DNA of 64,000 bases from Candidatus Dojkabacteria bacterium (GCA_025999215.1 AP024679.1:633924-697923), one strand, 5' to 3'. Counted from the stretch's first letter, positions 6,444 through 64,000 are shown. The notes: a model not told the origin generated them from the letters alone. Numbers and translations are program-made.

Positions 6444-6558
6444 AATGTTTTTTTAAACGCTATCCAGTCATTATAACATTCTCTGTTAATATTTTTAAAA
6501 TTGTATAGCAAAATTTTTTATTAAAATTAAAATATTTTATAAAAAACTTCAAAAAGAC

Positions 6559-6587
6559 TTGAACTTTTTTTGAAAATGATGTAAAAT
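6559..6587 (+). promoter_or_regulatory. Sigma70-type promoter, TTGAAC-17-TAAAAT
   Basis: -35 at 6559-6564, 17-nt spacer, -10 at 6582-6587. No ORF downstream. Confidence 0.5.
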
Positions 6588-6593
6588 TGCTTA

Positions 6594-6665
6594 GTGGTAA
6601 CTCATGTGTATAGAACCATGTGTTGCCCCTTCCCTAAAACCCTTCAAGTTCCTTGAAGGGTTTTT
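6594..6665 (+). ncRNA. Candidate small RNA 1 (about 72 nt), ends in an intrinsic terminator
   Basis: Transcript predicted from the 6559-6587 promoter. Terminator: 9-bp stem CCCTTCAAG/CTTGAAGGG (6640-6660) followed by TTTTT. Confidence 0.35.
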
Positions 6666-7328
6666 ACTTTCTTATGTCAATACTTCACAAAAAAATTAAA
6701 ATGAGCAATTTAAAACATGTAAAAAAGTATGGTAAAATTTAGTTAATCGTACTTTAGAATCGGTGAAATAGTGCTAGGCGAAAGGCTAAATATAGATCAA
6801 GGCAGTAAAAGCCCCCCAACACCTCAACACCCATTCCATTATTCATAATTGATAAGTAATCTATAAAAAATTTGGTAGTATTTTTAGTACTTTTATTGAT
6901 AACTAAAAAATTTCGAAGTGTATTAGGATATATATTATATACTAATTTTCTTTGCAAACCCTAGAGCTTTTCATTTTAAAGCTCAAACTTTACAGATTAA
7001 TAAATTTTCACTAAAAAACTTTACATATTTAACAAATATTTTGTGTACCTGTTCAGGTGGGATAATGTTCCATGACTGAACGGCGATTTCCCACCTTTTA
7101 CTACAAAGTTAATATATTTTTCTAAATTTGAATATTGAAAATGTAAAATTAACTGTCGTGAGCGAACGGCTATTACTCTTTTAATTTTTCGAAAACTCCT
7201 TCTATCTATATTTTAAATTATAACAAAATTTAGTTTTTATAAGAAAAATAAAAAAGGCTTGTTTTTTGTTTAGTTTTATTATAAAATGACATAGGATGTT
7301 TTTTTCATTTTTGTATCCTTTTTTTATA

Positions 7329-7359
7329 CCCTTCCAGTTCCATCTAGGAAGGGTTTTTT
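7329..7359 (+). terminator. Intrinsic terminator-like hairpin, CCCTTCC-loop-GGAAGGG plus T6
   Basis: Stem 7329-7335 / 7347-7353, then T-tract 7354-7359. Sequence resembles the 6640-6665 terminator, suggesting a paralogous unit. Confidence 0.45.
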
Positions 7360-7421
7360 CTTACTAAAATAACTGATTAGTTTAAAGCTAAAATTTCAAG
7401 CAAAATTTTAGCCAATAAATG

Positions 7422-7449
7422 TTGACTTTTTTTAATTTTAATATATAGT
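7422..7449 (+). promoter_or_regulatory. Sigma70-type promoter, TTGACT-16-TATAGT
   Basis: -35 at 7422-7427 and -10 at 7444-7449 in an ORF-free region. Confidence 0.45.
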
Positions 7450-7455
7450 ATACCT

Positions 7456-7556
7456 TTCAAACTTGCCGCGGAGTTTCCCGGTTCGCGTTCTCTAAGGCAA
7501 GTGAAGTCTATCTATATGGTGGGTAAAGAAAAATCCAGGCCAGCTTTCACCCACCA
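7456..7556 (+). ncRNA. Candidate small RNA 2 (about 100 nt)
   Basis: Predicted from the promoter at 7422-7449. Internal stem CTTGCC...GGCAAG. Terminal 9-bp stem ATGGTGGGT/ACCCACCAT (7506-7547) followed by a U-rich tail. Confidence 0.35.
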
Positions 7557-7688
7557 TATTTCTTTGATAAAAAAAACTTATTATAATTTTTTCAATAAAT
7601 ATTTCCATCAGAATCTATCTATACAACATCAAAATTAATTGTAAGATTTAATATTTACTAATAATACAATTTATAGTACAATACTAAT

Positions 7689-7756
7689 GCCGTGAACACA
7701 CACTCCTAACGGCACATTGAGCTCATTTATCATAAATGAGCTCTTTTACTTTTTTA
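7689..7756 (+). ncRNA. Candidate small RNA 3 (about 68 nt) with a strong intrinsic terminator
   Basis: Possible promoter TTTACT-17-TACAAT (7654-7682). Hairpin GCCGT/ACGGC. Terminator: 10-bp stem GAGCTCATTT/AAATGAGCTC (7719-7743) plus a T-run. Confidence 0.35.
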
Positions 7757-7858
7757 AAATTTATTTAAGTACGTAATTTTTTGATTTAAATACTCTTATT
7801 TAACTTGCATAATTTTTTGTTTTATTGTATCTTTACGATAATTGACACCCTCTTTCTG

Positions 7859-7893
7859 GCTCCAGAAGCAAACTTCTGGAGCTTTTTCTTTTT
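7859..7893 (+). terminator. Intrinsic terminator, GCTCCAGAAG-CAAA-CTTCTGGAGC plus T-tract
   Basis: Perfect 10-bp stem (7859-7882) followed by TTTTTCTTTTT, with no upstream ORF. Fits the same small-RNA array. Confidence 0.5.
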
Positions 7894-8121
7894 GTGGATG
7901 ATAATTGCAAAATTTAATTAGGTTACTATCATGCAATATGTTAAAATGGAAGTGTTAGAGCTTTTCTCTCAAGCTTTAGCAAAGGAGAATTCTTGACGCC
8001 CACTCAAGAATTCTCCAAATTTCCTTCTTGTTTATCTCTTTTGATGGTTAACAATATACGATAAAACTAAAACAGCCATGAGGTTTGAGCACATTTCAAT
8101 ATTTTTTGTAAATAAAAAAAT

Positions 8122-8150
8122 TTGACAAAGTTTATTTAAACGTGTTACAA
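8122..8150 (+). promoter_or_regulatory. Sigma70-type promoter, TTGACA-17-TACAAT
   Basis: Consensus -35 at 8122-8127, 17-nt spacer, -10 at 8145-8150. Downstream is a structured region closed by ACCAGGGG(8161-8168)/CCCCTGGT(8203-8210). Confidence 0.5.
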
Positions 8151-8665
8151 TGCATTAATTACCAGGGGTTTCAGGATGCGACATTACCATTGTCGTCCCT
8201 CCTCAAATTGCTCATGAAGCGTGCCCCTGGTCTTTCCTTATATCAACTTAGGTTTTTAGAGTTATTTTAAGCAGATTTTTTCACTGGGTATGTTATTTAA
8301 ATTAAATATAAATTATTTTTCATTATAGTTTCAAACTTGTAATTATTTTGATTTTTCTTTATAACTATTCCGCTTAGCATGGTCTCATTCGCCATGGCTT
8401 TGCAACTCCGCTTACTTGTTGATATACAAAATTTTCTTTAATATCTATATAAGTATCGTCTTTATTTTATTAAATTATTTGTTAACTTAAACAGTTTTTA
8501 ATACATTGCCAATTGTTAAAAATATTTAATAAAAATTTTTTGACAGTTACAAAGTTTTTTATTTATTGATCAACAAGGAAAGTAATTTATTGTTGAATGT
8601 TGAATTAATATTTTAAAAGAATTTAACTATCTTTATATTCACACCCCAAGAATCTACTAATGTTG

Positions 8666-9928: not shown

Positions 9929-10004
9929 ATTGAATTTTTAATCTTTGTAATTTTAACTAACATTTTAATATATGTAAACTCTATAAAAAATGTAAAATAC
10001 TATA

Positions 10005-10598
10005 GTGTTAGAATTTGAACAATCATTTAAGTTTTATTCAAAAGACATTGAATTAATCAGTGGTGATAGATTATTTAGTGAAATAAATAGATTTGTAAAT
10101 ATAAATTTAAAAATCATTAAAAAAATTTTAGATGTTGAAGAAAATGAAATTTCAATTAGATTGTGGCCTCATCCATGGAGCGCAGTAACTTTTAAAAAAC
10201 AAACATTTTGCATCTTTTTACCTAAAAATCTCATCAATATAAACCCAAATAAAATTTTCTATTTTACTTCTCAAGAAGAAATATTAATTTTCATTGTATT
10301 TATGCTTGCTCATGAACTTTATCATGTACGACAAGTTGTAAAATATCCAAGTTTTTTTGACAGAAACCATTTAGATATAAGCAAAAACTCCTTTTTGCGA
10401 TTTTACCTTAATCCAACAAATTTCTATAAAACATTTAACGGTAAAATTGAAACCTCAGCAAACCTTTTTGCAATGAAATATATCCAACAAATTCAAGCAA
10501 AAAACCTATTCGGCTTATCAATTCCTGCAAGTAAGTTTTTAGAAAGAAAATTTATTCTTAATTTTATTATACTTGCAATTAATCTTGTTGAATTTTGA
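10005..10598 (+). CDS. Hypothetical protein with HExxH motif, possibly an ImmA/IrrE-like zinc metallopeptidase
   Basis: 197 aa; motif FMLAHELYHVRQ resembles the LAHELGH motif of M78/ImmA-family peptidases. Confidence 0.35.
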   Translation: MLEFEQSFKFYSKDIELISGDRLFSEINRFVNINLKIIKKILDVEENEISIRLWPHPWSAVTFKKQTFCIFLPKNLININPNKIFYFTSQEEILIFIVFMLAHELYHVRQVVKYPSFFDRNHLDISKNSFLRFYLNPTNFYKTFNGKIETSANLFAMKYIQQIQAKNLFGLSIPASKFLERKFILNFIILAINLVEF

Positions 10599-10759
10599 GG
10601 ATTATTTTTGTTTTTATTTTAAAAAATATCTTGGAATTGAAATCTTAGTAAATTTATAAAATGTTACGAAAACATTTTTGAAGTTTTAAAGCTAGCGAAT
10701 ACCTGAAACAAATCTAACTTTTAATTTTATTTGCATATTTCGTCCTGGGTCAACGCGAT

Positions 10760-10840
10760 TTATAAGGGCATGGACTCATCAGTCACAGATCCAATATGAG
10801 ATATTTTAAGAGTGAATACAGTCATGGAGCCATAAGCCAA
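10760..10840 (-). pseudogene. Degenerate fragment resembling the tyrS N-terminal region (gene remnant)
   Basis: Reverse complement reads SMTVFTLKISHIGSVTDESMPL*, compare tyrS FEISGKPHIGSAVMSMAV. It shares the nucleotide string gatccaatatgag with tyrS at 9797-9810. Confidence 0.3.
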
Positions 10841-11170
10841 GCTAGGCATCAAAAAGACTGTGTTCACTTTTTTAAAAAATTTTTAATCTAGAGAGATATT
10901 AAAAGAAATGAACACGAGCGGGGATATTTCGTTTTCCTTCCACCTGCACCAATCTTTGTTAAAATCGTATAAGGTACATCGGCTTTACGGGCAGGTTCGT
11001 CTTGAGATAAACCAAGACCAGTTCTTAACTTTTTGATTCTTTCTTAATTTATTGTCTTGTCTATCTTCCATATTTTGATATCATAAAATTATTGATATCT
11101 TCTTCTTTCATTATTATGCTAACAAATATAATAAAGACAAGCAAATTTTTACAACTCAAAGATGAGAAAA

Positions 11171-11244
11171 AGCCCGCTTTTGGCCTGCATGCTCCGCACG
11201 TAAAAGTAAAGAATATTTGAAGGGAAAATCGGCTGGCGAGCCCT
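11171..11244 (+). repeat. Copy A of an approximately 73-bp direct repeat (about 96% identical to copy B at 15238-15310)
   Basis: agcccgctttTggcctgcatgctccgcacgtaaaagtaaagaatatttgaagggaaaatcggctggcgagcc; the two copies differ by one inserted T and one G/C change. Confidence 0.8.
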
Positions 11245-11313
11245 TTTAAATTCCACCCAGAATGCCAATTGGCAGAAAGGACTGGACGCTTTTCGAACTT
11301 TCCCCTGGTTTGA

Positions 11314-11684
11314 TCATATCAAAAATACTGATGACTTCATCAAGGATTTAAATTCCCTACTTAGCTTTGCCTTTTCCACCGGATATTTCTTATCGTTTAT
11401 ATCAATCTTCTCATCAATTATCTCCAATAGATCTACGCCTGCTTCTTTGCACAATAGAAGAAGATAAATTCCTACATCTGCAAGCTCTTGTCTGAATTCT
11501 GCAACCTTATCTGGATTCTATAGAACTTTTTTAGATTCGTCTAAAACCTTCCAAATAAAGTATTCAATAACCTCAGAAGCTTCAAACGATAAAGCAATTG
11601 CTAGATTTTAGGATTGTGAAACTGCTCCCGATCTCTATCTGTTCTGAATTTTTCTATCTTCTCTACAATTTGTTGAATGTTCAT
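11314..11684 (-). pseudogene. MazG-like nucleotide pyrophosphohydrolase pseudogene (frameshift plus internal stop)
   Basis: Reverse-strand translation MNIQQIVEKIEKFRTDRDREQFHNPK / [frameshift] NLAIALSFEASEVIEYFIWKVLDESKKVL*NPDKVAEFRQELADVGIYLLLLCKEAGVDLLEIIDEKIDINDKKYPVEKAKL... matches the MazG/YpjD NTP-PPase family. Reading is interrupted by a frameshift and a TAG. Confidence 0.6.
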
Positions 11685-11743
11685 TTTAGTAATTTAAAAG
11701 TTAAGTTTTATTAACTCGGAATTTTAAGTATTAATATAATTTT

Positions 11744-12768: not shown

Positions 12769-13929
12769 TTACATTTTTAAGTCAATTCTGATACTGATTC
12801 CGAAAATATAGGTTTGTACAATCTTAGGATTGAGCATTTTGACGCACATATCAATTACATGGCGAGGGGTGAAGTATTGGCCCTTTTCGCCTTTTGATGA
12901 CTTATTGACCAAGTATTCAAAGGCTTCGTCAATAATTTGCAGATTGGAATTGAAAAGTTTTATATCCTGCAAGCTGGAAACGCTGACGGAAAGATGAGAG
13001 GGTGAAAGTTGAATAAGGCTTCCTTCATCAAAAACGCCCGGCCACTTGGCCTTGGCTTCATCAAAAAGTTTTTGTATTTTCTTTTTAAGTTCTGACTCTG
13101 ATTGTCCGGAGTTTCTAAATTCTAAAACCCTGAAATTGGAATCATCTATTTTTGCCAAAACTTCTTTTACCTTGTCATAATCTCCGCGATCTTCTTGGCT
13201 TAATTTGTCTTCAAGATAAATTTCCAGACGCATTTTGTCTTTTTTGCTCTGCAATTCATCGTAAAGTTTGGTGAAAATTAGTTTAAAAACTTCTTCAAAA
13301 ACATCCACGCCAGCGTTTGCTAAAACTTCATCTTCCATTTCCTGAATAATGGTTTTGAACGATTTTCCCTCGTTTGGGATTTTGTCTTTGATGATTAAGT
13401 CTTTGAGGGTGAATCTTTCTTTTAAAATATCGGAAAGCGTCTGATCGGCTTTGGGAATGTCGGTAATGTCTTCAAAATAGTTCGGATCTTTGCGGTGGTA
13501 ATGACTGATTTGTCCGCCGTTGGTCCAAACTGCAATTGGCGCGCCGGTGGCGTTGGTGTAGGAGCGGAGCTGATTCTTTCCGTCTTGGAGTTTTGACTTT
13601 TTTACTTCAACGATAATGTATTCAACTGTCGGGCGGTCTTTGTCGAAAATAACAATATCGGCGGATTTTACCTGTCTTCCAAAATGGATAGCGTGTTCAA
13701 ATTTGATTCTTTGTTTTGGGTAGCCATATTCTTCAATGAGTTTCATGGCGTAAAGCTGGCGGACGACTTCTTCGGATTTCAAAACAATTTCTTTATCACG
13801 GATAGCGCAAACAACATACGGCTTGCCATTTTTGAAAGTTATTTTACTTTCTAATTCATCAACCAGCTTTTGGTCAAAAATAGAAAAGCTGTAATTTGAA
13901 TCTTTGATAATGTTTAAAATGTTTTTCAT
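12769..13929 (-). pseudogene. Truncated N6-adenine DNA methyltransferase (HsdM/type IIG-like) with HSDR_N-like N-terminal domain
   Basis: N-terminal HSDR_N-like segment (ADIVIFDKDRPTVEYIIVEVKK). MTase motif X (GQYFTPRHVIDMCVKMLNP) is followed immediately by a stop. The downstream DPACGSGGFL and NPPF/Y motifs are absent. Locally higher GC than the surrounding genome. Confidence 0.65.
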
Positions 13930-14015: not shown

Positions 14016-14924
14016 TTATTTATTATAAGTATAACTTTGTTTAATAAGCTCGAAAACCTGGTCAATTTCTTCTTCTTTTTCGAGTTTCACTTCATAATCA
14101 CCATTGCCCCAATGTCCAACCTTTTTCGGTTTTGCAAGATCGCGAGCAATGCCGTGAGGATCATTGAGCTCGCCACTTGGTACATTGAGAAAAATTTTGA
14201 GGCCATATTTTTTTACAACAACATCAACAAAATTCGTCGATAGCTTGTAGGCGATATATTTTGCTTTCGGCTCAACGATAATGGATTCATCAAGCGCAAC
14301 AATTTTTTCATTGATTGCCTCAAAAATTTTCTTGGCTTTTGGGCTGATTCCGCCTAGATGGTCTTCGAGGGTGTATATGACTTTTTCCTTGATTACCTTT
14401 TCTTTCTTTTTTTTGTCAAAAACTTTCGCGGTTGAGATACGCACTTTTTGTTGTGTTTCCGGTTCAACTAAAAGAATGTTGTTTTGGTAAATGCGGAATT
14501 TCAAAAGCTCAATTTTGATAGGGAGCAATTCAGCAGTATCTAAATCAAATTTATTGTAGCTTTCGGCAACGCAGATAACTCGGGGGGAGGCCCAATCAAT
14601 ATCAACATTCACTTTTGCTTTTTGCACTAAAACTTCAAAATCGGCTTTGTGGTCCAAAAGCCATCGAAGATATGAGAGTCCTTGATTGATCACATTATCG
14701 TTTTGGTTTCTTTTGTACTCGATGATTACTGGTGAGCCGTTCTTGTCAATGCCGAGAGAATCAATCCGTCCCCCGAAACTCGTTGAGTATTCGCTAGTGA
14801 GAAATGTGATGTTCAAAATCTCATTTAGATTTTTTTCAAAAATTTTCTGTATATCTCTTTCTAACCCAACTTTGATCGGAGGAATTTTTCTTACTTTGCC
14901 GTTTTGTATTAAAAATAAGGCCAT
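14016..14924 (-). CDS. NucS/PD-(D/E)xK-like nuclease domain protein with DUF5655-like C-terminus
   Basis: Motif GGRIDSLGIDKNGSPVIIEYKR matches the PD-(D/E)xK core of NucS/DUF91-type nucleases. Higher-GC gene inside the island. Confidence 0.5.
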   Translation of the reverse strand: MALFLIQNGKVRKIPPIKVGLERDIQKIFEKNLNEILNITFLTSEYSTSFGGRIDSLGIDKNGSPVIIEYKRNQNDNVINQGLSYLRWLLDHKADFEVLVQKAKVNVDIDWASPRVICVAESYNKFDLDTAELLPIKIELLKFRIYQNNILLVEPETQQKVRISTAKVFDKKKKEKVIKEKVIYTLEDHLGGISPKAKKIFEAINEKIVALDESIIVEPKAKYIAYKLSTNFVDVVVKKYGLKIFLNVPSGELNDPHGIARDLAKPKKVGHWGNGDYEVKLEKEEEIDQVFELIKQSYTYNK

Positions 14925-15329: not shown

Positions 15330-15419
15330 TGGCGGAGAGGACAGGATTCGAACCTGCGGTTCCGTTTCCGGAACACTGTCTCTCCAAGACAGCGCTTTCG
15401 ACCACTCAGCCACCTCTCC
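15330..15419 (-). tRNA. tRNA-Ser (anticodon GGA), CCA encoded
   Basis: The reverse complement folds as a class II tRNA with a long variable arm. Anticodon loop TTGGAGA, T-loop GGTTCGAATCC, acceptor GGAGAGG/CCTCTCC, 3' GCCA. Confidence 0.9.
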
Positions 15420-32688: not shown

Positions 32689-34404
32689 ATGAACGAATTT
32701 TTTGATTTTACAGTTTTAATTGCCTTAGCTTCAATATTAGCTTTAATCGCTAATAGATTTAGGCAACCTTTAATACTAGGTTATATTGGTGCCGGAGTAT
32801 TAATTAAGGTTTTTGGAATCATCGATCCAAACGATATAACAGAATTTAAAATTTTTTCAGAAATAGGAATAGTTTTTCTGCTTTTCATTTTGGGTCTTGA
32901 TTTAGACATTGCAAACTTGGGTAATCTTGGAATCACTGCGTTTGTTACCGGAATTGGGCAGATTGTTTTTACAGTATTGGTTGGCTTTTTCATAGCACTT
33001 CTACTTGGATACCAAGCTACCAGTAGCCTGGTTATCGCTGTAGCCCTTACATTTAGCAGTACAATTGTTATTGTAAAACTACTTTCAAGCAGAAATGATT
33101 TAGATAGTCTTTATGGAAAAATCTCAATTAGTTTCTTACTTGTCCAAGATTTAGCAGCTATTATAATTTTAATTTTACTTTCAGCAGCTTTTCAGGATGG
33201 AAATTCTGATCAGATTTATCTAAAACTTGCTGAATTGGGTATTGTGTTGCTTATTTTAGGAATTGTCTTGTATGTTATCAATAAATATATAGCGCCAGCT
33301 TTAATTCATTTTACATTGTACGATAGAGAAGTTTTGTTTATTTCTATGGTGAGTTTGGCCCTTATTTTTGCTTTAGGAATGAGTCAATTAGGTTTATCAA
33401 AAGAAATAGGAGCCCTTGCTGCAGGAATCGCTTTATCGACTAGAAAAGAGGCTCTGCAGATTGAGAGCTGGACTAAACCTTTGAGAGATTTTTTCATTCC
33501 AATATTTTTTGTTTTGCTAGGCTTTAGTATTGATGTCTCTGATGTTTCAAGTGTAATTATTGAATCAATTGTCTTTTCCCTATTTATTCTAATCGGAAAT
33601 CCTTTTATAGTCATGGTGATTATGAGACTTCTAAAATTTGATACAATAGTTGGTTTTCAATGTGGATTGACTGTTGCTCAAATCTCTGAGTTTAGTCTAA
33701 TTGTTGCAGAATTTGTGCGTAATAATGATAGCTCAATTATTTCATCAAGTGATTTAACAATGTTGACAATTGTTGGTGGAATCACTATGAGTGTGTCTAG
33801 CTATATGATTTTGTACAGTGAAGAAGTTTACTCTTTTATTCGACCTTTGTTAAAGAAAACCTTTCTTTACATAGAAGAAGACTACGATGTTGATTCATAT
33901 TCAAAGCAGAGACTTTCAAATAAAATAATTGTATTTGGGTTTAATAGAATGGCAAGAAGTTTAATACCTTTAATCAAAAGACAAAAACATAAGTTTGTAA
34001 TTGTTGATAATGACCCAGAAAAATTAGAATTTGCAGAAAAATTTGGCGCTAAAACTATTTATGGAGATCTTAAAGATGAATCACTACTAAACGGCTTAAA
34101 ACTTGAAAAAGCAGAAATGATAATATCAACAGTTCCAGACATAAATGCCAACCTAAACTTACTTTATGAATTACAGAATCTTACTCGCAAACCTGTGGTG
34201 ATTGTTACAGCTCTCAACGATGAAGACGCAAGTAAACTCTATGAAGAAGGTGCAAGCTATGTAGTTTATCCATATATTTTGGCTTCAAACTTTTTACATA
34301 GAGTAATTACCAACAAAGACACAATTAGAAGTTTGAAACGAGCCGCACAAAAAGATCAAGAATACATATCACAAAGAAACAATTTACATTTGGTAAAAAA
34401 ATAA
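32689..34404 (+). CDS. CPA2-family cation:proton antiporter (Kef-type) with C-terminal TrkA-N/RCK domain
   Basis: About 12 TM helices, then KIIVFGFNRMARSL...VIVDND Rossmann-like RCK. Confidence 0.75.
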   Translation: MNEFFDFTVLIALASILALIANRFRQPLILGYIGAGVLIKVFGIIDPNDITEFKIFSEIGIVFLLFILGLDLDIANLGNLGITAFVTGIGQIVFTVLVGFFIALLLGYQATSSLVIAVALTFSSTIVIVKLLSSRNDLDSLYGKISISFLLVQDLAAIIILILLSAAFQDGNSDQIYLKLAELGIVLLILGIVLYVINKYIAPALIHFTLYDREVLFISMVSLALIFALGMSQLGLSKEIGALAAGIALSTRKEALQIESWTKPLRDFFIPIFFVLLGFSIDVSDVSSVIIESIVFSLFILIGNPFIVMVIMRLLKFDTIVGFQCGLTVAQISEFSLIVAEFVRNNDSSIISSSDLTMLTIVGGITMSVSSYMILYSEEVYSFIRPLLKKTFLYIEEDYDVDSYSKQRLSNKIIVFGFNRMARSLIPLIKRQKHKFVIVDNDPEKLEFAEKFGAKTIYGDLKDESLLNGLKLEKAEMIISTVPDINANLNLLYELQNLTRKPVVIVTALNDEDASKLYEEGASYVVYPYILASNFLHRVITNKDTIRSLKRAAQKDQEYISQRNNLHLVKK

Positions 34405-34418
34405 TAGAGTGTTATAAT
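34392..34418 (+). promoter_or_regulatory. Promoter for tRNA-Glu, TTGGTA-15-TGtTATAAT
   Basis: Extended -10 TGTTATAAT at 34410-34418, about 15 nt upstream of the tRNA 5' end. Confidence 0.5.
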
Positions 34419-34433
34419 TTCTTACCTAAAGCT

Positions 34434-34506
34434 GGCCCCTTCGTCTAGCGGTCTAGGACATCGCTTTCTCAAGGCGGAAACACGGGTTCGAGTCCCGTAG
34501 GGGTCA
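34434..34506 (+). tRNA. tRNA-Glu (anticodon CTC), no encoded CCA
   Basis: Aligns with E. coli tRNA-Glu (GxCCCCTTCGTCTAG...GGTTCGAxTCCC...GGGGxC); anticodon loop TTCTCAA. Confidence 0.85.
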
Positions 34507-34507
34507 T

Positions 34508-34540
34508 AAAAAAGAAAAAAGCCTGGGTTGGATACCGGGC
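34508..34540 (-). terminator. Intrinsic terminator for ORF 34552-35088
   Basis: Minus-strand hairpin GCCCGG-TATCCAAC-CCAGGC followed by TTTTTTCTTTTTT. Confidence 0.6.
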
Positions 34541-34551
34541 TATGTCATGGC

Positions 34552-35088
34552 CTAGCCTTTGAGTTTGCGTTTAAACTCAACAATTGCAAGCATCGATAAT
34601 TGTTTTGCTACAGCGCGTAGATCTATTCTTTTTCCTGTTCCCTTCAGACACAACTCAAGACGAGTATTCGGAAACAGGTTGTTTGTCAGCGACAAGGTTG
34701 AGTAGAGCTGTACTACAGTGCTTAGGAGTACGATAAATCGAACCAAAACCTCCTTGAGCTCGTTAATTTTATCTGTAGAAAGCTCTGAAAGTTTAGCCGT
34801 AAAATCTTGCTCAATTTCTTTTATACTCTCATTGAGCTGTTCATAATTTAAATTTAACTCCACCCACCATTCAGGTGGTACCAGACTTATGCAATCTCGC
34901 AAACATCTCACAAACCACCCTAGTAGCGAAATAATTGACAACGAACTTCCTATGGCACTAGCGAGAGCTTCAACACTTAAATCTTCTTCATTATAATGAA
35001 AAAAGCTCATCATTTCCTCCTTTCGAGGATAAACATAGACACGATACATGATTTTATTATTTAAATTGTTCGTTGTCAACATTTTCAC
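34552..35088 (-). CDS. Hypothetical protein (178 aa), atypical codon usage
   Basis: Intact ORF with own terminator. Locally higher GC. No recognisable motif. Confidence 0.45.
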   Translation of the reverse strand: MKMLTTNNLNNKIMYRVYVYPRKEEMMSFFHYNEEDLSVEALASAIGSSLSIISLLGWFVRCLRDCISLVPPEWWVELNLNYEQLNESIKEIEQDFTAKLSELSTDKINELKEVLVRFIVLLSTVVQLYSTLSLTNNLFPNTRLELCLKGTGKRIDLRAVAKQLSMLAIVEFKRKLKG

Positions 35089-35422
35089 AAAAATTTTTTA
35101 AATATATCTAAAATTCAAATTAGAATAATTTTTAAATTAATATTCAACTATCAGCTTTAGTTTAAAGATTGGCAGCCTGGTGATGCATGTGATCATGACT
35201 TAATGGTATGGAAGAAATTTAAAGGTCATCAAAATGATAAAAAACAATTCTTAGCCTGAAGGTGAGTAATTTGTGATCAGCAACAACACAAAGTGACATC
35301 GAGCTCTTATTTTTAATTTTTTCCAATCTTATTATCAAATTTATAATCCGAATATTTATAATACTTTATCCTGTACATTTGCTAATTCGTAACATCTATG
35401 TTAATAGTTTTTGTTAAAACAG

Positions 35423-35452
35423 TTGACATAATGTTCAAACATTTGTTAAAAT
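35423..35452 (+). promoter_or_regulatory. Strong sigma70 promoter, TTGACA-17-TTAAAAT
   Basis: -35 at 35423-35428 and -10 at 35446-35452, about 25 nt upstream of the 35477 ATG. Confidence 0.55.
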
Positions 35453-35476
35453 AAGTAAATATTTAAGTAGTGTAGT

Positions 35477-36040
35477 ATGTATAATTTTGAAAAACATATA
35501 AGCAATAGAAAAACAATGACAGAATATTGGCTAGGAAATTTTAATACTGTTGAGGTATATATGAATCAGCAGGGTCAGTTTGCCAATGAAGGAGAAATAT
35601 TAGTGACTAACGGGTTAAATGGATGTGTAGCTCTCATTGTCAGAGCAGAAATGCCTGATGGAAAAGTAAAAGGTTTTCTTGCGCATAAACACTTGGATAA
35701 AAAAAGAATTCATGAATTTCTTAACGATCTAAAGAATGGTAATCTGTTATTAGATGCAAAGCTGTATGGGACAATTCTATATCCTGGAAATGAGCACGGC
35801 TTAATGCTTAGTCTTGAAGCCGAAACAATACAGGAAGAAATACAACAAAAACTAATTAATAATTTTGCTCCTGAAGCATGGTACCAATTGAGGTCTGTTA
35901 GGTATGCGATTTATCGTGGATTTCCAGGATCAGTTAATTCTAATCGGTTAGCCTATAATATTTCAGCAAATATGTGGGTATATCGTGAAGGTGCAGATCT
36001 CGAACATCCTTTAAGTGGCTTATTAAAACATGATAAATAA
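35477..36040 (+). CDS. Hypothetical protein (187 aa) with a conserved-looking Cys motif (TNGLNGCVALIV)
   Basis: Intact ORF behind a strong promoter. The motif suggests a Cys-dependent enzyme fold, but the family is unknown. Confidence 0.45.
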   Translation: MYNFEKHISNRKTMTEYWLGNFNTVEVYMNQQGQFANEGEILVTNGLNGCVALIVRAEMPDGKVKGFLAHKHLDKKRIHEFLNDLKNGNLLLDAKLYGTILYPGNEHGLMLSLEAETIQEEIQQKLINNFAPEAWYQLRSVRYAIYRGFPGSVNSNRLAYNISANMWVYREGADLEHPLSGLLKHDK

Positions 36041-36514
36041 ACAATTTTGACAGCAACCTAGATTTCTCCCACAAAATCGTTGAATGTTGGAATTCAACCT
36101 TACATGAGCTAACATTAGATTGTTACTCTTCAGCCATATCCACCATACTTTTTTAAAATTTTTTTGATAAACGCTCTCAATATTAATTTTTTGGTTTTAT
36201 TTTTCAAAACACTTCATAGTAAGCAAATAAAATTGCTAAAAAAGATGATCATATCATGCTTAATTACTTAAATATTTTTCACGACAATTATATAATGCAA
36301 AAAAAAGGAATAATTAAGGTAAATACTATCTAGCAAAACTTTCGTTCGTTAAGGAACTATATTTTGATATGGATTTATGCTAGTTCTTACATCTTAACCC
36401 CTAAAGTCTATTTCATCATACTATACCTAATCACTTATCAATTTTTTTGCAAAAATCATTGACTATGCTGTTACATCTGTGGTAAAGTTCAAGAAATAAA
36501 GTAAATGTTATATT

Positions 36515-37051
36515 ATGTTTATGTCTAACTTTGAAAATCTAGACTCTCAACGTACTCCTCCTGAAGATGGAATATATAGTGCTCGAGATTTGTGGATAAA
36601 ATTAAATGATGGTAATATTGCACAAGTTTTAAGTAAAAACTTATCTTTTGATTTAGAGCATGAGAACTGGAAAGTAAAATTTGAATATACCCCCCCAAAT
36701 GAAGACATTCAGGAAGACATTCAGTTTGCTCAGTTAAGTATAACAGATGAGCAAAAAAATACTGAGATTGAAATTCCAAAAGATATCATAGATAAAATAA
36801 TGAATCATTTAAATGAAAACAAAACTCAAGATCCCGGGCAGCTAGCTATTAATTTAAATACCTTGTTAAAAAAATATTTTGAAGATAAATCAAATCTTTT
36901 TTTCGTTACAATGTTCTTTTTGTATGTGATAGTTTTTGAAATGCAAGGAATGAAAGATATTCAAGATGAAAATGAAAAAAAACGAAGGGCTAAGTCTTTT
37001 GAAGTAGCAATGACTATGCTTAATTCTCCTGATATTCGTAATGAACAGTAA
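36515..37051 (+). CDS. Hypothetical protein (178 aa): acidic N-terminus, one hydrophobic segment, basic C-terminus
   Basis: ORF only. Candidate promoter TTGACT-17-TGgTAAAGT at about 36452-36485. Confidence 0.4.
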   Translation: MFMSNFENLDSQRTPPEDGIYSARDLWIKLNDGNIAQVLSKNLSFDLEHENWKVKFEYTPPNEDIQEDIQFAQLSITDEQKNTEIEIPKDIIDKIMNHLNENKTQDPGQLAINLNTLLKKYFEDKSNLFFVTMFFLYVIVFEMQGMKDIQDENEKKRRAKSFEVAMTMLNSPDIRNEQ

Positions 37052-37890
37052 ATTATTTTGTAATTTTAAAATAAATTGCTGATAGGTTATCGAATTTTCG
37101 GAACACTTTTTTTGATTCTTGAGATTTGAACTCATTTTGATGTGTATTTAAATCAGACTTAAAATTAGTGAAAAATTATTGTAACTTGTTAAGTTATTTT
37201 ATAGATAGTTCAAGCTTTAGGAAGATTTATGTAAAAATTTAACTATTTATGAAAGTCCCGAAGAGAGAATGGTAATACAACTGCCCGCCCTCGGATATTC
37301 TTACACAGAAGTTTTCATATTTGAGGGCTTTGAAAGACTGTACTAATGAAGGTAAAGTTCAATTGAGTGAATTGGTTGACACGTTATTTCATAATTTTAT
37401 TCCATTGTTTTGTTTTTTTATAATGATCATCATCATTATGAGAGTGATTCTTATAGAAATTCTTTTTTTGAATTTTAATAAATTTTATTACGCATTAATT
37501 TAAAGAGAAGATCCATCAATTGAAGAAAAAGATCGAGTAATTGAAGTGAATTTAACTTATTTTTTAGATATTTTAAGTAGAATTATTGGTGATGAATATA
37601 TTTCTACCCAAGCTAAATACTATTTTCTGATAAAAGGTTTACCTAGATATATTGATAAAATAAAAAGATCCTTACCGCCAAAGGATGAAAATACAAATTT
37701 AGCCTTAATTAAATACATTTAAACCCTCTAGCAATTTAAAAGTACACTCACAGACCTTAAATTTTAAATCATATTATACTTTTTGCATTTTTTAAAAGAT
37801 ATTCTTTATAAACAATCTTAAAAAAATATAAAATAAATCCTATAGTAATAAGAGTGAAAATTGTATTTATAATTAACTCAAAGCAATAGC

Positions 37891-37936
37891 TTAATTTCTT
37901 TAATTCTTTAATTCTTTAATTCTTTTATTCTTTCAT
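37891..37936. repeat. Short tandem repeat (AATTCTTT)n, about 5 units, 3 of them perfect
   Basis: ttaatttctt-taattctttaattctttaattcttttattctttcattcc, at the 3' end of ORF 37925-38695. Confidence 0.6.
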
Positions 37937-38695
37937 TCCATAAACTGCACCTATAGCATATGGATGAGCAAAGCTATTGAATAACATAAAAGCTAAAATC
38001 GTAAATGGCCATAGACAAACCCCTATTATCACAAAGGTTAGTAAAACATTAACAAAAAATACCACCCAAAAAAACATTGTGATCAAAAAATAGAAAAGAA
38101 CTCCTAAGTTGTAATTGCGATTTTTAAATGAGCTTTTGAAATACTGTTTGTAATTAAAAGCTTCTTTGAATGTATTTGTTTTTATCATCTGTAACAAAGC
38201 AGGTTGCATTACATAAAAAGAATACAAGAATGCAAAAATTGTTTGAAAAATTGAAAAGCAAACGAAAAGCATAACCAGTATAAATTCTACATTTGAATCT
38301 TCAGCTCCTTCAGCCAAAACACTTAAAATTTGTGAGAAAAAAGATACAAACACCAAAGGAATTGAATATATTATGCTTACTAAAAGATACTTTCCTGACT
38401 TTTTAAATAGTTCAACTTTATCTTTCTTCCAAATTATATCAGTATCTCTCTGATGAATACCTGCTTGTGTGTACTCGTAAGTATAACTTATATTCCAAAC
38501 CAACCCCAGAACAAACAATACTAATCCAATGGAGCACGCAAGCATAACGCCAAGTATAGGATGTATCAAAAAACCAGGAAATATAAATACCAAACCTACT
38601 AAAATCAAAACAAAATTTACCAAAAAATAAACGCCTATTTTCTTTAAAGCATCTTTTTCTTGAATTGGTTTCTTAAGGTTTTCAAAATAATACAT
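37925..38695 (-). CDS. Polytopic membrane protein, hypothetical
   Basis: 256 aa with about 6 TM helices. Confidence 0.45.
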   Translation of the reverse strand: MYYFENLKKPIQEKDALKKIGVYFLVNFVLILVGLVFIFPGFLIHPILGVMLACSIGLVLFVLGLVWNISYTYEYTQAGIHQRDTDIIWKKDKVELFKKSGKYLLVSIIYSIPLVFVSFFSQILSVLAEGAEDSNVEFILVMLFVCFSIFQTIFAFLYSFYVMQPALLQMIKTNTFKEAFNYKQYFKSSFKNRNYNLGVLFYFLITMFFWVVFFVNVLLTFVIIGVCLWPFTILAFMLFNSFAHPYAIGAVYGMKE

Positions 38696-52287: not shown

Positions 52288-53017
52288 TTACCAACCTCTC
52301 ATCAAATGAGTTATTGTTTCTGCTATATATTTTACTGCTGGTATTACAATTTCATAATTCATCCTGTTCGGGCCTACAACCGCAATGTAGGCTTTTTTAT
52401 CCTCAAAAATTTTTAAAGTTGTGAAAATTATTGTGTAATCGCTTAAATGATCTTCTCCCGTCTCTTCGCCGATCAAAATTGCGACATCATCATTTTCATA
52501 GTTATTAAAAATTTTAGATAATGCTGAATAATCTTCGATCAAGTAAAGCAATCCCTGCAGCCGTCCAACATCCTGAAATTCAGGAAGATTAACCATTTTA
52601 GCCAAACCAACATGAAAAATATTGTTACCTACCAAAGCAATTGCTGTATTTTGCTGTCATGTGGTGCAAATAATCAAGGCTTCGCATTATCAACTTCTCA
52701 GTTTCAAATTTCAAAATATTTAACTGGTATTTAATTTCTTGTTCAGTATCTTTTATAACATTGATTGGATTCTTTGGTTTTACTTTGTGGATGTAAAACC
52801 TCCATGCCTTCGTTGTGGGTATTCTGCCTCCACTCGAGTGCTTCATGTAGAGATAACCTTTTTTTACCAACTCCGCCATTTCATTTCTGATCGTTGCTGG
52901 ACTCACATTCAACTTGAGTTTTTCTTGCAGACTCAGCGACCCAACCGCGCTTCCGGTATCTATAAATTCTCTAATTATTGCAATCAGCAATTCTTGTTGT
53001 CTTTCTGTGATGTCCAT
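52288..53017 (-). CDS. hrcA: Heat-inducible transcription repressor HrcA, with an apparent frameshift near 52630-52665
   Basis: N-terminal wHTH (MDITERQQELLIAIIREFIDTGSAVGS...ATIRNEMAEL) and C-terminal motif IAVVGPNRMNYEIVIPAVKYIAE lie in different frames. Confidence 0.75.
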
Positions 53018-61485: not shown

Positions 61486-61575
61486 GGAGAGGTGGCCGAG
61501 CGGTCTAAGGCACATGTCTCGAAAACATGAAGGGCAAAAAAGCCCTCGTGGGTTCGAATCCCACCCTCTCCGCCA
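61486..61575 (+). tRNA. tRNA-Ser (anticodon CGA), CCA encoded
   Basis: GGAGAGGTGGCCGAGCGGTCTAAGGC... with anticodon loop CTCGAAA, a long variable arm, T-loop GGTTCGAATCC and 3' GCCA. Confidence 0.9.
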
Positions 61576-61825: not shown

Positions 61826-64000
61826 ATGGCTTTAAAAAAATCACAACTTTATAATAAAATTTGGCAAGCATGCGATGCGTTACGAGGTGGCATGGATGCC
61901 TCTGAATATAAAAATTATGTACTCACACTTTTGTTTGTTCGCTACCTTTCCGATAAACACGCCAACAACCCAAATAGCATTGTTGTAGTTCCTGAAGGCG
62001 GAAGTTTTGCGAATCTTTCTAAATTAAAAGGTAAGTCAAACATCGGGGAAGAGATTAATAAGGTTCTTCACAAACTTGCAGAAGCTAACAATTTAAAAGG
62101 AATAATCGACATTGTTGACTTTAATGATGAGAGTAAGCTTGGTAAAGGGAAAGAGCAAGTTGATAGATTATCAGAATTAATTGCTATTTTTGAATCAACT
62201 GAGCTTGATTTTTCTAAAAATTCTGCCGAAGGTGATGATCTTTTGGGAGATGCTTACGAGTATTTAATGAAAAACTTTGCCGTAGAATCCGGAAAAAGCA
62301 AGGGGCAGTTTTACACTCCAGCGGAAGTTTCTCGCTTAATAGCAAAGTTGGTAGAGGCTAGCAAAGCCACAAGTAACTCTCAGAATGCCTATGATCCTAC
62401 TTGCGGTAGTGGGTCGCTACTTTTGAAAGTTGCAACTGAAGCAAAGCCTGTCAATCTTACTCTTTTTGGTCAAGAAAAAGACAATAATACGCATGCATTA
62501 GCAATTTTAAACATGTGGCTTCATAATGAGCCAACAGCAGACATTAGAAAAGGAAACACTTTGTCAGAACCTGCTTTTACTGAAAATGGCGCATTAAAAA
62601 AATTTGATTTTGTGGTTGCTAATCCTCCGTTTTCCCAAAAAAACTGGATGCAAGGGCTTGATCCTGAACATGATTTATACGCCAGATTTGATGGCTTTGG
62701 TATTCCTCCAGCTAAAAATGGCGACTACGCTTTTTTGCTTCACATTGTTAAATCTCTAAAAAGCACTGGCAAGGGAGCAGTGGTTTTGCCTCATGGTGTG
62801 CTTTTCCGCGGAAACGCCGAGGCCCAGATCCGCCAAAGCTTGGTTAAGCGTGGTTATATTAAAGGCATCATCGGCCTGCCCGCAAATCTCTTTTTTGGTA
62901 CAGGCATACCAGCCTGCATCGTTGTTTTGGATAAGGAGAAAGCGGCCGAACGCCAAGGCATTTTTATGATCGATGCCTCAAAAGGGTATCGTAAAGACGG
63001 CAATAAAAACCGCTTGCGCGATCAGGATATTGAAAAGATTTTGGATATTTGGCAATCACAGGAAGAAATTCCAGGCTTTAGCCATTTTGCTACTTTGAGA
63101 GAGATAGAAAAAAACGAATACAACTTAAATCTTCCCCGCTACATTGAAAACATAGATCAGGAAGATGATCAATCAATAGAAGGGCATCTCTATGGTGGAA
63201 TTCCAACAAAAGACATTGAAAGCCTTAAAAACTTTTGGCAGGTTTGCCCTAAACTAAAAGATGAGATTTTTACGCCATTAAGAGATGGTTTTGTTTCTCT
63301 CAAAGTTGACACTGACAACCTTGGAGAAACTATCCAAGAAAGAGCTGAATTTTTAAGTTTTAAAAACAAAACTCAGGAGACTTTAAGGCAGTGGCAAAAA
63401 GTACAACAGGAATATTTAACTAGTTTAGACTCTGATGTTAGGCCAAAAGAAGTCTTTTTCAAACTAGGGCAAGCACTAAAAACTGCCTTTGCAGAAAACC
63501 CCTTGCTTGATAAATACGATGTTTTTCAAGTTTTGGCTGATTACTGGCAGGAGATAATGCAAGATGATGTGTATATAATTGTGAGCGATGGCTGGCTGGC
63601 AGGCAAAGAGGTAATAAGGCTTACCAAAGAAAATAAAAACAAGAAAAAGGCCGAGATTAAAGGCTTAGCCGGGCTTGAGGGTAGATTAATACCGGTAGAT
63701 CTTCTTATCAAAACATACTTTGCCGACACTTGGCAAGATTTGGAAAAGGCAAAACAAGACCAAGAAGAAGCAAAATCTCGTATGGATGAGATAAAAGAAG
63801 AGCATGGCGGTGAGGATGGTTTGCTCTCGGATCTTGCAAGCGAATCTGGCAATATTCCCAAAAAAGATCTTCTTGCCAGACTCAAAGAACTGCAAAGATC
63901 GCAAAATTTGGGTGAGTTAGATGAAGAAGAAAAGGAAGAGCTAGATGTTTTGCAAGAATATGCGCAAAATCTAGAAAAAGAGTCCCAAGCTAAAAAAGAG
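61826..64000 (+). CDS. hsdM: Type I restriction-modification system methyltransferase subunit HsdM (3' end outside the window)
   Basis: RBS GAGGAG. N-terminal MALKKSQLYNKIWQACDALRG, motif X GQFYTPAEVSRLIAKLV, motif I DPTCGSGSLL, motif IV NPPFS. No stop before the window edge. Segment 62750-63060 is about 50% GC. Confidence 0.85.
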   Translation, partial: MALKKSQLYNKIWQACDALRGGMDASEYKNYVLTLLFVRYLSDKHANNPNSIVVVPEGGSFANLSKLKGKSNIGEEINKVLHKLAEANNLKGIIDIVDFNDESKLGKGKEQVDRLSELIAIFESTELDFSKNSAEGDDLLGDAYEYLMKNFAVESGKSKGQFYTPAEVSRLIAKLVEASKATSNSQNAYDPTCGSGSLLLKVATEAKPVNLTLFGQEKDNNTHALAILNMWLHNEPTADIRKGNTLSEPAFTENGALKKFDFVVANPPFSQKNWMQGLDPEHDLYARFDGFGIPPAKNGDYAFLLHIVKSLKSTGKGAVVLPHGVLFRGNAEAQIRQSLVKRGYIKGIIGLPANLFFGTGIPACIVVLDKEKAAERQGIFMIDASKGYRKDGNKNRLRDQDIEKILDIWQSQEEIPGFSHFATLREIEKNEYNLNLPRYIENIDQEDDQSIEGHLYGGIPTKDIESLKNFWQVCPKLKDEIFTPLRDGFVSLKVDTDNLGETIQERAEFLSFKNKTQETLRQWQKVQQEYLTSLDSDVRPKEVFFKLGQALKTAFAENPLLDKYDVFQVLADYWQEIMQDDVYIIVSDGWLAGKEVIRLTKENKNKKKAEIKGLAGLEGRLIPVDLLIKTYFADTWQDLEKAKQDQEEAKSRMDEIKEEHGGEDGLLSDLASESGNIPKKDLLARLKELQRSQNLGELDEEEKEELDVLQEYAQNLEKESQAKKE

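Follow-up and report, generated by a model that had tools for sequence, protein, structure and literature searches.

CheD of Thermotoga maritima (PDB entry 2F9Z, Pfam family PF03975) is an alpha-beta-beta sandwich protein with the triad Cys27/His44/Thr21, and the corresponding residues of NTAN1, the eukaryotic N-terminal asparagine amidohydrolase (PDB entries 6A0E/F/H/I), are Cys75/His92/Ser69 (PMC7022378). NTAN1 has a CNF1/YfiH-like fold and a length of about 300 amino acids (aa); its C-terminal region caps the active site and sets the specificity for N-terminal Asn. The superfamily fold and Cys-His catalysis are found as well in CNF1, CNFy, BLF1 and YfiH/PgeF (DUF152). The CNF and BLF1 toxins occur as domains within large proteins that are secreted or injected, and YfiH binds zinc through His/Cys/His. 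We know of no bacterial N-terminal amidase with the CNF1/YfiH-like fold. Here we describe a candidate new family of this superfamily, found next to a tRNA gene of a bacterium belonging to the candidate phyla radiation (CPR). The window, a stretch of 64,000 nucleotides (nt), comes from the metagenome-assembled genome KatS3mg085 (Candidatus Dojkabacteria) and has a G+C content of about 30%. The region 34508-37924, located 3' of tRNA-Glu(CTC) and called the patch below, contains three open reading frames (ORF1, ORF2 and ORF3) and the probable remains of a fourth gene. Like tRNA-linked islands and prophage morons, it starts at a tRNA 3' end, has a gene of deviating composition (ORF1), is sparsely coding and includes a pseudogene, and ORF2 resembles a moron in being a self-contained unit with its own promoter. 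Unlike tRNA-linked islands, it carries no integrase, no attachment-site (att) direct repeats and no phage or plasmid genes. We consider the patch, with a probability of about 0.62, to be a mosaic accessory region (a 'plasticity zone') and not a co-functioning module. It would consist of four unrelated pieces of differing age.

The AlphaFold2 (AF2) model of ORF2, calculated from the family alignment, has a predicted local distance difference test (pLDDT) score of 85.1 and a predicted template modelling (pTM) score of 0.85, and an alpha-beta-beta sandwich is predicted in it. A Foldseek comparison with the PDB places CheD first (2f9z_C, E = 1.4e-6, TM 0.50/0.58) and NTAN1 second (E = 9e-6 to 2e-4), while the similarity to YfiH/DUF152 and the CNF toxins is much weaker (E = 4e-3 to 5e-2). 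Among viral models the matches are giant-virus proteins, one labelled CheD and the others uncharacterised. In the ten members of the ORF2 family the residues T44, C50, H70 and H72 are nearly invariant, and so are N48 and G49, which bears out the conserved Cys motif TNGLNGC that had been proposed by an earlier sequence-only reading of this DNA. An hhalign alignment puts ORF2 residues 41-74 on CheD residues 18-48, so that T44/C50/H70 correspond to T21/C27/H44, at a pairwise E of 0.0067 and a probability of 5.7%. The CheD query used here agrees with 2f9z_C at 156 of 157 residues. The Thr-x5-Cys spacing is the same in ORF2 and CheD and the hydroxyl-to-Cys distance equals the six residues between Ser69 and Cys75 of NTAN1; the His is located on the next strand in CheD and ORF2. 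By eye, the C-terminal 'NSNRLAYN' of ORF2 is similar to 'GGNRARSVEYN' of CheD. ORF2 differs from CheD in a Cys-to-His spacing of 20 residues versus 17, in about 25 additional N-terminal residues and in the additional conserved H72. It differs from NTAN1, to which its sequence is 13-15% identical, in its shorter length of 187 aa and in having no counterpart of the C-terminal capping region. From these correspondences C50 is predicted to act as catalytic cysteine in an amidohydrolase of the CheD/NTAN1 type. The enzyme would hydrolyse side-chain amides (Gln/Asn deamidation) of a protein or peptide, by a Cys thiolate with His in an activating and Thr in an orienting role, as in CheD and NTAN1.

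None of the ten family members matches PF03975 at E <= 10, and a search of PDB sequences with ORF2 and its family profile returns only noise and does not reach 2F9Z. Because sequence profiles alone fail to reach CheD, ORF2 is a new, divergent family within the CheD/NTAN1 superfamily and not a CheD orthologue. The protein shows neither a hydrophobic segment nor a secretion signal in the hydropathy analysis, and a cytoplasmic location is assigned to it.

Nine homologues of ORF2 are found at 62-71% identity, and a hidden Markov model scan of 1.84 billion representatives returns no more than six clusters, one member being 39% identical. Ratios of nonsynonymous to synonymous substitution (dN/dS) between family members range from 0.11 to 0.25, with dS saturated, and ORF2 is under purifying selection. 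A comparison of the loci (Table 1) shows that the ORF2 coding sequence is all they have in common. Neither ORF1 nor ORF3 nor the spacers recur, the neighbours differ at every locus, and no conserved partner gene is observed. A tRNA gene lies within 260 nt of the homologue in four of the nine contexts; a rough estimate from about one tRNA per 20 kilobases (kb), not a computed value, would give about 3% by chance. Three homologues, from different genomes, are located on the same strand 3' of tRNA-Leu genes identified by ARAGORN, namely at 9089-9171 in L003 (TAG), at 3143-3228 in L025 (TAA) and at 725-810 in L027 (CAA). L003 and L025 are 78% identical over about 245 nt, the spacer included, pointing to orthologous units of tRNA-Leu and ORF2 whose anticodon has changed, whereas L027 has the promoter alone in common. 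A link of ORF2 function to one particular tRNA was considered and rejected in view of the differing neighbours (Glu, Lys and three Leu isoacceptors). The relatives have a conserved extended -10 element, AAATTGATAAAATT, 7-8 nt ahead of the ATG, and this spacing implies a leaderless, self-contained unit. In the window copy the promoter had been placed at the right site by the sequence-only reading; its spacer is 18 nt, with TAAAAT and a TG extension, rather than 17 nt with TTAAAAT.

Broken copies of ORF2 are present in three lineages: the L025 copy is frameshifted, L029 contains fragments, and L030-32 have a TAA in frame. The L030 copy (10001-10570, GCA_001789635.1) is an otherwise full-length in-frame homologue of about 40% identity with a single TAA at codon 84. 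Its shortened product is identical on 24 contigs, and the TAA points either to a nonsense mutation that was fixed recently or to a split gene. Since three lineages hold broken copies, the profile of the family is that of a dispensable accessory gene and not of a core enzyme. Horizontal spread is plausible for this patchy family, with its differing neighbourhoods and several copies by tRNAs, and it would be old, in keeping with a G+C content at third codon positions (GC3) of 0.23 and a codon score of 0.248, both native to the genome. Thus ORF2 would be an older single-gene unit, a moron-type accessory gene found by tRNAs and toxin-antitoxin modules, partnerless and often inactivated.

It could be argued instead that ORF2 is a housekeeping enzyme, either a CheD of chemotaxis or a PgeF/YfiH-like enzyme of peptidoglycan editing, and that its position near a tRNA is incidental. 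CheD is indeed the best structural match, YfiH/PgeF follows at weaker similarity, purifying selection is strong and codon usage is native; C50, H70 and H72 could presumably resemble the Cys/His/His site of YfiH. We judge this highly improbable. About ten sequences in six clusters are all that is found among billions of proteins, the Pfam CheD family does not match, copies are disrupted in three lineages, and the tRNA proximity in four of nine contexts stands against the rough expectation given above. In addition, no genes for Che proteins or methyl-accepting chemotaxis proteins are annotated around the window copy or at the nine other loci, within up to 10 kb per side as far as the contigs allow. 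Chemotaxis genes are generally absent from Patescibacteria and other CPR bacteria (PMC7137472). This makes a CheD-type action on chemoreceptors improbable, and in a phylum generally without chemotaxis the substrate of ORF2 would have to differ from that of CheD.

The G+C content of ORF1 is 0.38-0.39 and its GC3 0.36, compared with 0.224 +/- 0.059 in 46 ORF-like genes of the window (z = +2.4), and its codon log-likelihood score of 0.06-0.09 is below that of all 43 comparison genes (0.328 +/- 0.076, minimum 0.147). The atypical composition that the sequence-only reading had ascribed to the whole island is accordingly a property of ORF1; ORF2, and likewise ORF3 (GC3 0.225), are at the window mean and native-like in codon usage. 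The longest frame of ORF1 opens at a GTG. A TTGACA-17-TAAAAT promoter sits within this frame and AGGAGG precedes ATGATG, so the start is probably ATG 35013 or 35010, with a product of 152-153 aa. The Shine-Dalgarno site is unusual for this genome: GGAG, GAGG or AGGA at -20 to -4 of the first ATG is found in none of the 43 other window ORFs, with ORF1 as the clear exception, and translation in this genome appears to start practically without such sites. On the minus strand a second AGGAGG followed by ATG is seen near position 8203, in an ORF-free stretch.

Downstream of the ORF1 stop, the hairpin and U-run begin 1 nt past tRNA-Glu, as expected of an insertion at the tRNA 3' end. The 'own terminator' claimed for ORF1 is present as a hairpin and U-run; the hairpin is weak (-7.2 kcal/mol for the minus-strand fold of 34505-34556) and its energy is not significant (z = 0.25). 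Because its GC3 and codon usage are outlying and its Shine-Dalgarno site is of foreign type, ORF1 has the appearance of a gene recently imported from a donor of higher G+C that uses Shine-Dalgarno sites. It would be a foreign gene that retains the donor signals, namely the sigma-70 promoter, the strong Shine-Dalgarno site and the hairpin with its U-run. A search of 5.8 billion proteins returns only ORF1 itself. Structure prediction is uninformative here: the single-sequence AF2 model has five helices at low confidence (pLDDT 63), and Foldseek finds nothing below E = 0.2, the matches being generic helical bundles. Hydropathy indicates two marginally hydrophobic segments that are predicted to be helical.

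ORF3 likewise matches only itself among 5.8 billion proteins. Its codon score of 0.321 and its GC3 are native and its composition shows no sign of transfer. A single marginal hydrophobic helix is predicted at about residues 128-146 by hydropathy, and ORF3 is possibly a membrane-anchored, lineage-specific small protein. The horizontal acquisition proposed for the whole block thus holds up for ORF1 by GC3, codon usage and Shine-Dalgarno site, is plausible but old for ORF2, and has no compositional sign in ORF3. The promoter-like match ahead of ORF3 is weak, and such weak matches are frequent in this AT-rich DNA (27 found, 19.8 +/- 4.3 expected).

Further downstream, a gene remnant had been suspected at 37250-37500. 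The six-frame translation shows that frame +3 is open from 37249 to 37722 save for two TAA codons, and that it has a coding-like codon score of 0.188, compared with at most 0.036 in the other frames; the ORF finder splits it into ORFs of 60 and 58 aa. It has no paralogue within the window. This is a probable decayed gene, and the long gaps of the patch are most simply decay debris. The gaps at ORF1-3 are 388, 474 and 873 nt long (window median 15 nt), as the sequence-only reading had seen, and the coding density of the patch is 0.48 compared with 0.86 outside, which puts the patch near the 5th percentile among sliding windows of its size.

One may ask whether ORF1 and ORF3 are genes at all, or chance or decaying frames, as they have no homologues, the ORF1 model is of low confidence and their surroundings are decayed. 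This is scarcely credible. The three ORFs lie at precisely the positions that had been named, and the open stretches of 189, 183 and 181 codons exceed by far what is obtained in 1000 Markov simulations of the region (maximum 166 codons, maximum for the third-longest 105), in which three ORFs of at least 178 codons never arise. For all three, the reading frame of the ORF clearly has the highest codon score. Furthermore, the promoter, Shine-Dalgarno site and U-run hairpin of ORF1 are correctly placed, and the codon usage of ORF3 is fully native. ORF1, ORF2 and ORF3 are not chance ORFs.

Could all these genes have been brought by one integrative element, a prophage or island in the 3' end of tRNA-Glu, that then decayed? 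The foreign DNA begins no more than about 1 nt from the 3' end of the tRNA, coding is sparse and a pseudogene is present. Relatives of ORF2 are found by tRNAs, one of them (L003) 1.2 kb upstream of a tyrosine recombinase, and the other tRNAs of the window also precede foreign-looking genes. We nevertheless regard such an origin as unlikely. Genes between 23.6 and 46 kb, about 10 kb on each side of the patch, encode no integrase or transposase domain, and neither the window nor the related loci contain a copy of the 3' end of the tRNA at three mismatches or fewer. The domain make-up of the L003 recombinase is XerC/D-type. Phage-family searches and scans of viral contigs with the ORF2 alignment and a degenerate VNSNRLAYN pattern find nothing, and tblastn of ORF1-3 against phage genomes yields a single match at E = 0.7. 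The composition of ORF1 is strongly unlike that of ORF2 and ORF3, and separate arrivals are therefore favoured over a single element.

The sequence-only reading had suggested a toxin/immunity pair, an abortive-infection module or another small defence module. Put in its strongest form, ORF2 would be a deamidase toxin with ORF3 or ORF1 as immunity protein or antitoxin, or the genes would act in abortive infection. CNF1 and BLF1 are potent toxins of the same fold (PMC7022378), and the relatives of ORF2 sit in accessory DNA where toxin-antitoxin modules abound; ORF1 and ORF3 encode small, possibly membrane-associated proteins, and a tRNA is next door. This proposal fares badly and we hold it to be very unlikely. 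Homologues of ORF1 and ORF3 are found nowhere, including beside the relatives of ORF2, which are always solitary. The genes have separate promoters, one of them is divergent, and they are some 400-500 nt apart (gaps of 388-474 nt), while their compositions indicate differing ages. ORF2 is small and, unlike the CNF and BLF1 toxins, has no secretion signal or delivery domain. PADLOC gives no match for the six proteins submitted, and Pfam, PADLOC, PHROGs and NCBIfam searches with all ORFs give nothing significant for ORF1, ORF2 and ORF3, for the two small ORFs or for the stitched pseudogene frame.

Several observations weigh against the mosaic accessory patch as well. Integrase and transposase domains are missing from its surroundings, and no att repeats are detected (no shared k-mer of at least 14 nt). 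Other stretches of the window are equally sparse or sparser, so the coding density of the patch is not the lowest. Even with no conserved partner, ORF2 may still be linked in function to the ORFs without homologues (ORFans) in a strain-specific manner. Finally, there is no close relative in the collections searched and an empty site was not seen, and we infer the boundaries of the patch and its insertion history. The flanking proteins are singletons, with no relative of at least 90% identity among 15 billion proteins, and neither a metagenome scan with the 563-aa protein downstream of the patch nor an exact 48-nt search of metagenomes with the 3' two-thirds of tRNA-Glu finds anything. A Logan contig (L001, run DRR290133) with identical ORF1-3 starts inside tRNA-Glu, at window position 34479. 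It was rejected as a sign of island polymorphism, because its start is most likely explained by a k-mer assembly that broke off where a tRNA segment is repeated. In the patch, Rfam finds the tRNA only; a match to CRISPR-DR50 at E = 1.2 was judged to be chance.

Table 1. Features of the patch and contexts of the ORF2 homologues (positions counted from the first nucleotide of the window).
Feature	Position	Strand	Basis or context
Promoter-like TTGGTA-17-TATAAT ahead of tRNA-Glu	34390-34418		Promoter scan
tRNA-Glu, anticodon CTC	34433..34507	+	ARAGORN; Rfam RF00005, 57.7 bits; left edge of patch
Terminator-like hairpin AGCCcGG...CCaGGCU, then UUUUUUCUUUUUU	34508..34541	-	Just past ORF1 stop; abuts tRNA 3' end
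ORF1	34552..35013 (probable coding sequence); longest ORF to GTG 35088 (178 aa)	-	ORFan
ORF1 Shine-Dalgarno AGGAGG	35016..35021	-	Part of AAAGGAGGAAATGATG (35023-35008)
ORF1 sigma-70-type promoter TTGACA-17-TAAAAT	35051..35079	-	Promoter scan, 11/12 positions; within 5' end of longest ORF
ORF2 promoter TTGACA-18-(TG)TAAAAT	35423..35452	+	Promoter scan, 11/12 positions plus TG extension; ends 24 nt before ATG
ORF2, 187 aa	35477..36040	+	CheD/NTAN1-like (CNF1/YfiH-like fold) putative Cys-His-Thr amidohydrolase, cytoplasmic; tRNA-Glu 970 nt upstream
Promoter-like TTGACT-18-(TG)TAAAGT 5' of ORF3	36459..36488	+	Promoter scan, 9/12 positions, weak
ORF3, 178 aa	36515..37051	+	ORFan, native codon usage
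Probable pseudogene, about 157 codons	37249..37722	+ (frame +3)	TAA at 37273 and 37501; includes strongly hydrophobic segment
ORF2 homologue, L002			Between purine operon and tRNA-Lys / RuvC / 23S rRNA; tRNA-Lys 214 nt off
ORF2 homologue, L003 (Roizmanbacteria; the only relative placed taxonomically in another CPR lineage)			After tRNA-Leu(TAG), 224-260 nt; then 1.2 kb empty stretch and XerC/D-like tyrosine recombinase
ORF2 homologue, L006			Adjoins rve transposase
ORF2 homologue, L024			Adjoins YafQ-type toxin-antitoxin pair
ORF2 homologue, L025			After tRNA-Leu(TAA), about 200 nt
ORF2 homologue, L026			Before two PIN toxin-antitoxin pairs
ORF2 homologue, L027 and L028			After tRNA-Leu(CAA), 166 nt
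ORF2 homologue, L029			Gene-poor region, five tRNA genes in first 4.8 kb
ORF2 homologue, L030-32			Adjoins HicB

At the left edge of the patch, ARAGORN and Rfam agree on the tRNA-Glu(CTC) that the sequence-only reading had put there. On its 5' side a pentose-phosphate operon and a K+/H+ antiporter are found. The antiporter (32689-34404, Na_H_Exchanger and TrkA_N domains) lies directly 5' of the tRNA. In a pattern-based scan of genome contigs the matches are only 23-40% identical and belong to Gammaproteobacteria, DPANN archaea and other phyla, the best (32-40%) being from Gammaproteobacteria, DPANN archaea and an actinobacterium, with zero matches in Dojkabacteria; this pattern may reflect an old transfer or merely the limited sensitivity of the scan. 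On the 3' side of the patch follow a DUF4013 membrane protein, the 563-aa protein, KsgA and others. An 8-mer, TTCTTTAA/AATTCTTT, is repeated in tandem in about 4-5 copies at 37889-37937, on the right-hand border of the patch, and extends over the end of the DUF4013 gene that carries the stop codon.

GC3-rich accessory genes sit 3' of all three tRNA genes of the window, and at both tRNA-Ser genes they are related to restriction-modification. The gene for tRNA-Ser(CGA) is located at 61486-61575, and 250 nt further on begins a type I HsdM (HsdM_N and N6_Mtase, E = 1.7e-103) that runs beyond the window end at 64000 and has a G+C content of 0.39 and a GC3 of 0.33, compared with a background of 0.30 and 0.22. 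The gene for tRNA-Ser(GGA) is on the minus strand at 15330-15419. On its 3' side are found a DUF5655 protein (14016-14924, GC3 0.37) and then an HSDR_N_2 domain with a truncated N6_Mtase fragment (12769-13929, GC3 0.41), which look like remnants of restriction systems. The highest GC3 of the window (0.42) belongs to a small LexA/HrcA-like winged-helix protein (52625-53017, minus strand) that adjoins no tRNA. Two stretches, 6444-8622 (2.2 kb) and 10599-11743 (1.1 kb), contain no ORF of at least 70 aa and no Rfam match at the gathering score. The weak Rfam matches to PinT (7808-7885, E = 0.03) and to Hammerhead_3 (10732-10807, minus strand, E = 0.05, 25 versus 48.5 bits) are probably chance.

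As a whole the patch is ordinary, being tRNA-proximal accessory DNA with ORFans of a kind common in CPR genomes. What is predicted to be new, on the strength of the structural model, is the small ORF2 family outside Pfam, NCBIfam, PADLOC and PHROGs; its superfamily is already known. A more far-reaching idea, which we put forward as speculative and rather unlikely to be right, is that ORF2 and its relatives form a new class of stand-alone protein deamidases that travel as a single-gene, self-promoted moron at tRNA hot spots and have a role in conflict or host interaction. The target might then be, for example, a phage protein, a protein of the host cell of an episymbiont, or N-terminal Asn/Gln, in which case ORF2 would be a bacterial N-degron amidase. 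The family would so far be found in CPR genomes where the lineage can be assigned, and the adjacent ORFans could modulate ORF2. If this were true, CheD/NTAN1-type chemistry would gain a new role in bacteria without chemotaxis. Moderate interest would attach to ORF2 if it were a conflict effector or an N-terminal amidase of bacteria. Apart from this, a Shine-Dalgarno site in a window otherwise without them may make recently arrived foreign DNA simple to recognise in genomes of this kind, and about ten 'hypothetical proteins' could be annotated by way of ORF2, which is also a testable enzyme.

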